This document shows positions 21,408-23,989 of a stretch of DNA of 27,244 nt, one piece after another. A program made the translations under genes and the position numbers. The notes beneath the pieces are model-generated. The model did no database searches and was not told where the DNA came from. It saw only the letters and a program-made list of their open reading frames with translations. The first letter of the stretch is position 1. Every line of letters begins with the position of its first letter. This stretch comes from Candidatus Hermodarchaeum yapensis (GTDB lineage: Archaea; Asgardarchaeota; Hermodarchaeia; Hermodarchaeales; Hermodarchaeaceae). The DNA lies in contig JAEOSK010000036.1 in assembly GCA_016840405.1 (NCBI GenBank), positions 1-27,244 on the forward strand, written 5' to 3'.

Positions 21408-22349
21408 ATGAAAAGATATTGCTACTTATGTAAGGGGCCTTCAGTTATTTCACGATCTTATTCCGGTGAGGTGTTATGCGAAAATTGTTTCCGTGAATCT
21501 ATGATGACTGCAGTACGAACTGCCATTTCTAAATACAAGATGCTTCAACGAACGGATCGAATTGCGGTTGCATATTCGGGAGGAAAAGACAGCACTGTTC
21601 TACTATCGACACTTGTCGAGATTCAACAACGCTTTCCACAATCTGAAGTGGTTGCTATCACTTTGCAGGAGGGAGGTAAGCAAGATAGTGAACGCCGAGA
21701 AGTGCTAGCCAATGTAACCAGCCAGCTACAAGTTGAGCATATTACCTCCACGTACAAAGAGCTATTTTCTTTAACATTAGATGAAATTGCTGACTTGGCA
21801 CGAAAATTAGATTCGCCTCTCTCACCTTGTGCCTTTTGTGGAACTCTTCGAAGACAAGGGCTCAATATTCTTGCCCGGAAAATTAACGCTGACAAACTTG
21901 CTTTAGGTCATAACTTAGACGACGAAGTTCAATCCATGCTCATGAACCTCATCCGAGGAGATGTACAAAGGCTATCTCGTATCACACCTTATTTGAAAGG
22001 GGTGCCCGGATGGTTAGTCCCTCGTATCAAACCCCTTTATCACATAATCGAAAAGGATCTCCTACTGTATTCACAACTTCTTGGTCTCCCAATATATCAT
22101 CCTCCTTGTCCGTACAAAGAAACCTCTCTTCGTAATGAAATTCGGGAATGGCTGAATACTTTTGAAGAGCAACACCCGGGATCAAAGTACAATCTTCACG
22201 CAAGCTTTATGAAAATAATTAATGTGCTTCAGAATGAAACAGAAGTACCATTCCAAAAGTGCCAACGATGTGGCGAATTGACATCTCAGGCAATTTGTGC
22301 TGTATGTATTCATCGTGAATCTCTAAGCAAGCTGAATGGTAAAAAATGA
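21408..22349 (+). CDS. tRNA 2-thiolation protein, TtuA/Ncs6 (TIGR00269-like) PP-loop ATPase
   Basis: N-terminal CxxC..CxxC, SGGKDS, CAFCGTLRR, GHNLDD, RIKPL, CPY and a C-terminal zinc finger. Start set at ATG 21408; the ORF track uses 21279. Confidence 0.92.
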   Translation: MKRYCYLCKGPSVISRSYSGEVLCENCFRESMMTAVRTAISKYKMLQRTDRIAVAYSGGKDSTVLLSTLVEIQQRFPQSEVVAITLQEGGKQDSERREVLANVTSQLQVEHITSTYKELFSLTLDEIADLARKLDSPLSPCAFCGTLRRQGLNILARKINADKLALGHNLDDEVQSMLMNLIRGDVQRLSRITPYLKGVPGWLVPRIKPLYHIIEKDLLLYSQLLGLPIYHPPCPYKETSLRNEIREWLNTFEEQHPGSKYNLHASFMKIINVLQNETEVPFQKCQRCGELTSQAICAVCIHRESLSKLNGKK

Positions 22350-22356
22350 GAAGGGC

Positions 22357-22702
22357 GGACGGGAGCCCCGACGGTCGTCAACCCTTTCTGGTGCCGTACT
22401 CACAGTCAGGTCTCGGACCCGGATCTCGGAAGCATCTACAGTACAGGCTTACGCTGCTCCCTCCCGGGTCTCGCTGGATTCACCTGCTAAAGGTGATTCA
22501 GCCCTTCCTACGAAAAGCCTACCACCACCAGCGATCCTCCGAGGCGGATCGTCACAGCCACGAACAGCGAGTCGTACACCAGGTCAGAAAGCCTAACGTC
22601 GGCATTCAGCCCGCCGTAGAGAGCATCTGCGGTACAGGGGAGCCTTAGCCAGCCCGTAGCGGCGCTGCGGGGCTTCTAGCCCCCCGCCTAGGCTCACCGT
22701 CC
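22357..22702 (-). ncRNA. ffs: Signal recognition particle (7S) RNA, with a 29-nt putative intron at 22646-22674
   Basis: GC-rich. Minus-strand fold: helix 1 GGACGG(U)GAGCC/GGCUCCCGUCC; Alu helix 3 GGGGG/UCCCC followed by UGUA; helix 4 CCGC/GCGG; long helix 5; helix 6 with GUAG tetraloop; helix 8 GC-GAGA-CCC-GGGA-GGG-AGCA-GC. Confidence 0.94.
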
Positions 22703-22724
22703 AACCAGCTCCACAACCTCGCGG

Positions 22725-22740
22725 TATTTAATCATTTCTT
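22725..22740 (-). promoter_or_regulatory. BRE/TATA promoter of SRP RNA
   Basis: Minus strand reads AAGAAATGATTAAATA, with TTAAATA ending 22 nt upstream of helix 1 and abutting the stop of the upstream CDS. Confidence 0.6.
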
Positions 22741-23270: not shown

Positions 23271-23356
23271 TGGCGCCGGGGACGAGATTTGAACTCGTGA
23301 GTCCAATGGACACAGACTTAGCAGGCCTGCTCCCTACCAGGCTAGGATACCCCGGC
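23271..23356 (-). tRNA. tRNA-Ser(GCT), intronless, CCA encoded
   Basis: GCCGGGG/CCCCGGC-GCCA acceptor, anticodon arm CAGGC-CT GCT AA-GTCTG, long variable arm GTCCATTGGAC, T loop TTCAAAT. Confidence 0.97.
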
Positions 23357-23880: not shown

Positions 23881-23989
23881 TGGTGGGCCGAGAGGGACTC
23901 GAACCCCCGACCACCGCGGTGTAAGCGCGGTATCATAGCCTTCTAGTCTGTCTGAAGAGCTTCCAAACAGATAGCTAGACTATCGGCCC
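23881..23989 (-). tRNA. tRNA-Val(TAC) with a 32-nt D-loop intron (17/18; 23941-23972); CCA encoded
   Basis: GGGCCGA/TCGGCCC-ACCA acceptor and CCGCG-CT TAC AC-CGCGG anticodon arm. The intron has central helix CTAG/CTAG, bulges CTA and AAG, and inner stem TCTGTTTG/CAGACAGA. Mature length is 77 nt. Confidence 0.95.

Follow-up and report, generated by a model that had tools for sequence, protein, structure and literature searches.

The locus examined here raises the question of whether the gene for SRP RNA, a universal and essential molecule, can be interrupted by a tRNA-type intron in an Asgard archaeon, Candidatus Hermodarchaeum yapensis. A preliminary description of the window (the whole stretch of DNA that was analysed, 27,244 nt of contig JAEOSK010000036.1) had proposed a 29-nt bulge-helix-loop (BHL) intron at 22646-22674, in the helix-3 loop of the SRP RNA Alu domain, whose removal would shorten the RNA from 346 to 317 nt. 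We consider it highly probable that the best explanation as a whole is an SRP RNA precursor with a spliced intron of relaxed BHL form at 22645-22675, in the tip of Alu helix 3. On the basis of one RNA contig and strong comparative consistency, these 31 nt are very probably a spliced endonuclease-type intron; the core of the earlier proposal therefore holds, but its splice sites, helix register and mature loop do not.

The identity of the host gene is clear. In a cmscan search of the window, the archaeal SRP RNA family RF01857 matches 22360-22699 on the minus strand at 120.8 bits, above the gathering score (the curated cut-off) of 96.5 bits, and the match runs collinearly along the full model, positions 1-317. 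The 5′ GGACGG (22697-22702) can be read from the sequence as complementary to the 3′ CCGUCC (22357-22362), and this terminal pairing sets the precursor at 22357-22702 on the minus strand, 346 nt as first described, with a predicted mature RNA of 315 rather than 317 nt. About 26 nt upstream of 22702 lies a TATA-like box (22725-22732, minus strand) that may act as the promoter, and downstream of the 3′ end is a T-run (22341-22346, minus strand), a likely terminator. No other SRP RNA match occurs in the H. yapensis assembly, which is 2.7 Mb and 86% complete. On the plus strand (window 22336-22648), ORFs of 86 and 100 aa lie antisense over the SRP RNA gene, and both are almost certainly spurious. 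This stretch also occurs in metagenomic DNA runs from estuary, marine-sediment, sediment, and seawater samples.

The sole large departure of the gene from the Rfam model is in the helix-3 loop, which in the cmscan alignment has 33 nt against 2 in RF01857, an excess of 31 nt. We divide the gene, on the minus strand, into a 27-nt exon 1 that ends in CUAG (22676-22702), a 31-nt intron (22645-22675), and a 288-nt exon 2 that begins with GGCU (22357-22644) and is delimited by the Rfam alignment and an RNA contig. The cuts at 22676|22675 and 22645|22644 follow from the junction seen in that contig, from the 31-nt excess over the model, and from the 7-nt helix-3 loops of intron-less relatives. The insertion that was first described is thus present, with borders that differ: its proposed ends of 22646 and 22674 place each cut one base inside the site supported by these three observations.

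Around the two cuts the minus strand can form the elements of an archaeal splicing motif, which we number from the U at 22690. An outer helix pairs GGGG (22682-22685) with CCCC (22637-22640) and is invariant and 100% paired in relatives. The central 4-bp helix joins a GGCU in exon 1 (22678-22681) to a GGCU in the intron (22647-22650) through the pairs G.U, G-C, C-G, and U.G, and all of its 3′-strand cells are paired in relatives. On the 5′ side follows a 3-nt bulge, AG^A (22675-22677), cut at 22676/22675, and then an inner helix of AGCCC (22670-22674) with GGGCU (22651-22655), the latter strand being paired in 97.9% of cells in relatives. On the 3′ side the splice site lies in a 6-nt unpaired loop, AA^GGCU (22641-22646), cut at 22645/22644. 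The archaeal splicing endonuclease cleaves 2 nt beyond the 3′ end of either strand of the central helix (Marck & Grosjean 2003, as cited in PMC11291895), and both RNA-supported cuts fall at exactly this distance. Directly 3′ of either strand of the 4-bp central helix the splice site is unpaired, and the pairs of this helix are kept in all 16 distinct relatives. The motif is not a strict hBHBh′, which has a 3-nt bulge at either splice site along with flanking helices on both sides, since the 3′ side has 6 unpaired nucleotides (22641-22646) in place of a 3-nt bulge, and we accordingly describe it as a relaxed BHL. The BHL form with a 4-bp central helix and a 3-nt bulge had been recognised before, one base out of the register (GGCU/GGCU, AG^A, AA^G) that fits the junction.

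How readily such a motif arises by chance can be estimated by shuffling the 31-nt insert with the exons held fixed: among 1,000,000 shuffles, the central helix together with all five inner pairs appeared in register with a probability of 1.9e-4, and of 1.8e-3 if only three inner pairs were demanded. Thermodynamic folding was also considered as support for the motif and dropped, because the 61-mer hairpin as a whole is no more stable than its shuffles (z = 0.12) and the minimum-energy fold is a different, non-cleavable arrangement. In the isolated 60-mer the cleavable conformer has an energy of -19.4 kcal/mol versus -27.7 kcal/mol for the minimum-energy fold, a gap of about 8 kcal/mol. The bulges of the minimum-energy fold lie 5′ of the helix strands, that is, on the wrong side, and this modelled fold of the insert region should not be a substrate.

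Conservation of the insert was assessed in a sample of the class Hermodarchaeia comprising 19 species genomes from two genera. An SRP RNA match was found in 16 of the 19, and every one of these 16 genes carries the insert. A pattern scan of species genomes recovered the insert-bearing region in MAGs named Hermodarchaeota, Promethearchaeota (Asgard), and Atabeyarchaeia. The 16 distinct Hermodarchaeia sequences align without gaps; variation clusters in the apical loop of the insert, and the exons and helix-forming bases are invariant or change in ways compatible with pairing, so that 98.9% of pair cells are paired. The outermost central pair is G.U in 11 of the 16 distinct relatives and G-C in the other 5, and two inner pairs show C-G to U.G changes, the C-to-U replacement in the inner helix of two relatives leaving a G.U pair. 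No helix pair has changed on both sides within Hermodarchaeia, and shuffles gave the same covariation value as the observed alignment. Comparison with relatives, which had been suggested as a check, thus bears out the insert and its central helix without two-sided covariation, and within Hermodarchaeia the motif rests on conservation rather than covariation.

The second check that had been suggested was a search for the splice junction in metatranscriptomes, and it found an exon join, at 22676|22644 and not at the sites first proposed. We aligned Logan contigs of four metatranscriptome runs over 22320-22740. The alignment called no joint in any of the four runs, and the junction comes from the loose end of a contig in a wetland run (X15) alone: this contig starts at 22676 and is preceded by 17 loose letters that match 22628-22644 on the plus strand without a difference. 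Read as RNA, it runs through exon 1 to the G at 22676 and then continues directly with the G at 22644, skipping the 31 nt of 22645-22675. The depths of the bins that it covers, 26.5, 99.5, and 53.1, equal 99.5 times 4/15, 15/15, and 8/15, from which we infer that the contig spans 22676-22702 at a depth of about 100. A spliced Atabeyarchaeia SRP RNA would read alike across the junction, and the assignment of the contig to Hermodarchaeia depends entirely on its alignment extending to 22702. In X15, 28 contigs match this gene at 99% identity or more, which puts a close relative in the sampled wetland library.

Other RNA contigs touch the same region. In a run from a second study (X16), a 262-nt contig ends at 22644, a weak hint of splicing. 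In a further run (X20), three contigs align as far as 22650 and continue in unrelated-looking letters (agreement 0.66); these may be SRP RNAs of other organisms with a native CUAAGGC loop. The bin depths of X15 and X20 suggest that 22651-22675 is without contigs in both runs, an uncovered stretch that we do not count as evidence. As a DNA control, which adds no RNA support, the spliced junction was sought in genomes and metagenomes: a pattern covering both the 31-nt form and the form first proposed occurred in 0 of 400 Asgard genomes, and neither spliced form, with a gap of 0-4, occurred in JGI metagenome contigs.

Removal of 22645-22675 is predicted to leave a 7-nt loop, CUAGGGC, whose UAGGGC can pair with the helix-4 loop (22617-22624, minus strand), a complementarity that recurs across Asgard families. 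The helix-3 loop has 7 nt in every intron-less Asgard SRP RNA that we read, and CUAGGGC is the native loop in three intron-less families (f4, f10, and f21), where it faces a helix-4 loop containing GCUCUA; excision thus restores a conserved mature RNA. Loop-loop pairing of 5-6 bp recurs in other families with different sequences: UAGGGG/CCCCUA, UAGCGG/CCGCUG, UAGGCC/GGUCUA, and UCGGGC/GCUCGA. Two Hermodarchaeia relatives vary in a manner that suits the same contact after a 31-nt excision: in one (G018) exon 2 has GGU and helix 4 has ACUCUA, a compensated C-G to U-A change, and in the other (G004) exon 2 has AGC, giving a perfect UAGAGC/GCUCUA with G.U replaced by A-U. In the window and in one further genome (G014), an A-to-C change in the helix-4 loop loses one of the six pairs. 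The preliminary description had anticipated that splicing would enable helix-3/helix-4 loop pairing, and this part stands; the 8-nt complementarity that it proposed gives way to the 6-bp UAGGGC with GCUCUA type found across Asgard families, and its 10-nt mature loop (a 29-nt excision would in fact leave 9 nt) to CUAGGGC, with the 7 nt usual for intron-less Asgard SRP RNAs.

Beyond Hermodarchaeia, a helix-3-loop insert was found only in Atabeyarchaeia, and these two alone have one among the 23 Asgard families sampled. Three Atabeyarchaeia genomes (L011, L012, and L039), two of them complete, carry an insert of 30-31 nt in the same loop with an unrelated sequence. It forms a strict hBHBh′ motif, with a CUAG/CUAG central helix and bulges GG^A and AA^C. 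Between genera the inner helix differs by compensatory changes on both sides of a pair (U-A to C-G), and the BHB-like fold is the minimum-energy fold. The predicted product loop is again CUAGGGC, here a perfect complement of the RNA's own GCCCUA helix-4 loop. A fourth Atabeyarchaeia locus (L064) has the same canonical hBHBh′ insert in helix 3, the interior being very different between genera. The Hermodarchaeia and Atabeyarchaeia introns are therefore alike in host RNA, in loop, in the mature CUAGGGC, and in a length of 30-31 nt, but the Atabeyarchaeia intron differs in its two strict 3-nt bulges, its CUAG/CUAG helix, its position 2 nt further 3′, and its unrelated interior. Four other families (f7, f10, f22, and f30) have a perfect hairpin of 16-25 nt inserted in the conserved UGUAA linker that separates Alu helices 3 and 4, at about nt 30-60 of each SRP RNA (loci L007, L008, L009, L057, L059, L061, and L062). 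No bulge geometry was seen in these hairpins, which may be retained extra helices rather than BHB introns.

Such hairpins lend some plausibility to the idea that the Hermodarchaeia insert is itself a structural element, a lineage-specific expansion of helix 3 retained in a mature RNA of 346 nt, with an intron-like geometry that is incidental. The insert is after all a conserved hairpin, its minimum-energy fold differs from the BHB fold, and plain extra Alu hairpins between helices 3 and 4 do occur in other Asgard families. We nonetheless regard a retained hairpin as unlikely. The RNA-library contig lacks exactly these 31 nt, a form that no sampled genome encodes; the apex of the insert has been free to drift, in contrast to the fixed exons and cut-site surroundings; and removal restores the 7-nt loop and the loop-loop pairing of every intron-less family. 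The weight given here to the joined contig depends in turn on its being a product of splicing, and not of an unsampled intron-less relative, of DNA in the RNA library, or of a skip by reverse transcriptase. There is only one such contig, and Logan contigs, which cannot tell RNA from DNA carried in a library, are no proof of an RNA origin. Against this, the junction is missing from all 400 Asgard genomes and from the JGI metagenome contigs, and the insert is present in every Hermodarchaeia SRP gene found. A reverse-transcription skip would be expected to use the GGCUA direct repeat and so to give a different product; at the observed junction the neighbouring bases differ, so that it has no flanking microhomology and cannot slide, which argues against a skip between the GGCUA repeats, and it falls at the positions predicted by the EndA rule. 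An origin of the contig other than splicing therefore appears extremely improbable.

If the insert is spliced, the register could still be the one first described: a 29-nt intron (22646-22674) with a GCUA/UGGC central helix and cuts at GA^A and UA^A, which would leave a mature loop of 9 nt. The pairings on which it was based, GCUA/UGGC and GCCC/GGGC, are indeed present in the sequence; the corresponding conformer has a similar energy (-18.2 versus -19.4 kcal/mol), and three central and four inner pairs are common to both registers. The X15 contig speaks against it, however, as with these sites the alignment would have continued through 22675 and the overhang would have begun one base earlier, instead of the observed 22676|22644. 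Relative to the Rfam model the loop is longer by 31 and not 29 nt, a 9-nt product loop would stand against 7 nt in all intron-less relatives, and the changes in G004 and G018 fit the 6-bp pairing that follows a 31-nt excision, so that we hold this register to be very improbable. A 3′ cut placed 2 nt further downstream, which would give the loop CUAGAGC, was ruled out as well, as it has no in-register 4-bp helix and disagrees with the RNA junction. We therefore retain the 31-nt intron with the GGCU/GGCU helix.

The genome encodes a predicted splicing endonuclease and the ligase RtcB. Two genes match PF01974 (EndA), one of 186 aa on contig C14 with the catalytic Tyr/His/Lys motifs and a 198-aa paralogue on contig C36 that lacks the His, and a two-subunit EndA architecture has been linked to relaxed substrate use (PMC4731332; bioRxiv 10.64898/2026.10.13.758758). 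RtcB (PF01139) is present at 509.9 bits. The RtcB matches lie at two contig ends (C74, 10768-11895, and C61, 3858-4367) and overlap at model positions 263-365, a split that could reflect a break in the assembly, the presence of two copies, or a gene that is interrupted. The same window contains a tRNA intron: tRNA-Val(UAC) (23883-23989, minus strand), 1.3 kb from the SRP RNA gene, is recognised by ARAGORN as a 77-nt tRNA only after removal of a 32-nt D-loop BHB intron (23941-23972, minus strand) with a CUAG/CUAG central helix and cuts at CU^A and AA^G, and it has the 3′ splice site text AA^GGCU in common with the SRP intron. D-loop introns had been claimed for both tRNAs of the window, and this is true of tRNA-Val; tRNA-Ser(GCU) (23271-23356, minus strand) is intact and intron-less. 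Genome-wide, ARAGORN run with its intron search gave only 20 tRNA genes in 2.7 Mb, introns being present in 12, which is what one would expect were many genes broken up at non-canonical sites. One ARAGORN call, a tRNA-Arg with an 812-nt 'intron', points to a very long intron if it is not an artefact.

Together these elements suggest a maturation pathway. The single SRP RNA gene would be transcribed on the minus strand from 22702 to 22357 into a 346-nt precursor, which would fold into the relaxed BHL (GGGG/CCCC, GGCU/GGCU, AG^A, AGCCC/GGGCU, and AA^G in a 6-nt loop). Cleavage by the two-subunit splicing endonuclease would then fall 2 nt beyond the 3′ end of either strand of the central helix, and RtcB would join the exons, probably with circularisation of the intron. 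In the resulting 315-nt RNA, UAGGGC of the CUAGGGC loop would pair with the helix-4 loop and close the Alu fold, a contact that the unspliced RNA, presumably non-functional, would not make. The insert looks like a relaxed BHL intron of tRNA type, and we share the earlier view that SRP maturation here probably depends on EndA and RtcB.

If the RNA is spliced as proposed, protein targeting would depend on the tRNA-splicing machinery, and SRP RNA would join the hosts of archaeal endonuclease-type introns. Such introns would also explain the low covariance-model scores of Asgard SRP RNAs. With its 27 + 31 + 288 nt, the precursor offers a simple, testable substrate with a relaxed motif for gauging the substrate range of an Asgard two-subunit EndA, and the pair of Hermodarchaeia and Atabeyarchaeia introns is relevant to the gain or movement of such introns. 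More tentatively, we entertain a broader picture for which the case is at present the weaker one: EndA/RtcB splicing may be obligatory for SRP in Hermodarchaeia and intron-rich Asgards, the unspliced RNA lacking the loop-loop contact; BHB introns may have spread into all major classes of RNA (tRNA, rRNA, mRNA, and SRP RNA) in close relatives of eukaryotes; and the Hermodarchaeia and Atabeyarchaeia introns could reflect repeated targeting of one site or sliding of an intron.

Introns of the EndA type are known outside tRNA genes, in crenarchaeal rRNA genes as BHB introns and in the cbf5 pre-mRNA. These are precedents for the present case, and they differ from it in the class of host RNA. Full-text literature searches, whose coverage is thin for subscription journals, found no published internal SRP RNA intron, in line with the preliminary description, whose author likewise knew of none in Archaea. 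The tRNA introns of Asgard archaea (PMC11291895; bioRxiv 10.64898/2026.10.13.758758) come from lineages that are equally intron-rich, but their host is tRNA; both papers treat tRNA introns only and leave SRP RNA unmentioned. The closest known system in terms of the host RNA is the permuted SRP RNA of Thermoproteus tenax and T. uzoniensis, which undergoes BHB-dependent circularisation (Plagens et al. 2015, eLife, PMC4731332). As proposed here for Hermodarchaeia, maturation in Thermoproteus relies on a heterotetrameric splicing endonuclease together with a BHB motif, and on ligation of the RtcB type. In contrast to Thermoproteus, the Hermodarchaeia gene is not permuted, its Rfam alignment being collinear from 1 to 317; the motif flanks an internal intron in Alu helix 3 rather than the termini, and the product would be linear rather than a circle. 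That permuted genes arose from an ancestor with simple BHB introns is offered in PMC4731332 only as speculation. In its 4-bp helix and its cuts 2 nt 3′ of the helix strands, the SRP intron resembles the non-canonical BHB and BHL introns of archaeal tRNAs (Marck & Grosjean 2003), including those of Thermoproteales. The acceptance of relaxed motifs by two-subunit EndA would follow the same logic in archaeal tRNA introns and in the SRP RNA of Hermodarchaeia, which would thus be a new host RNA for a known type of intron.
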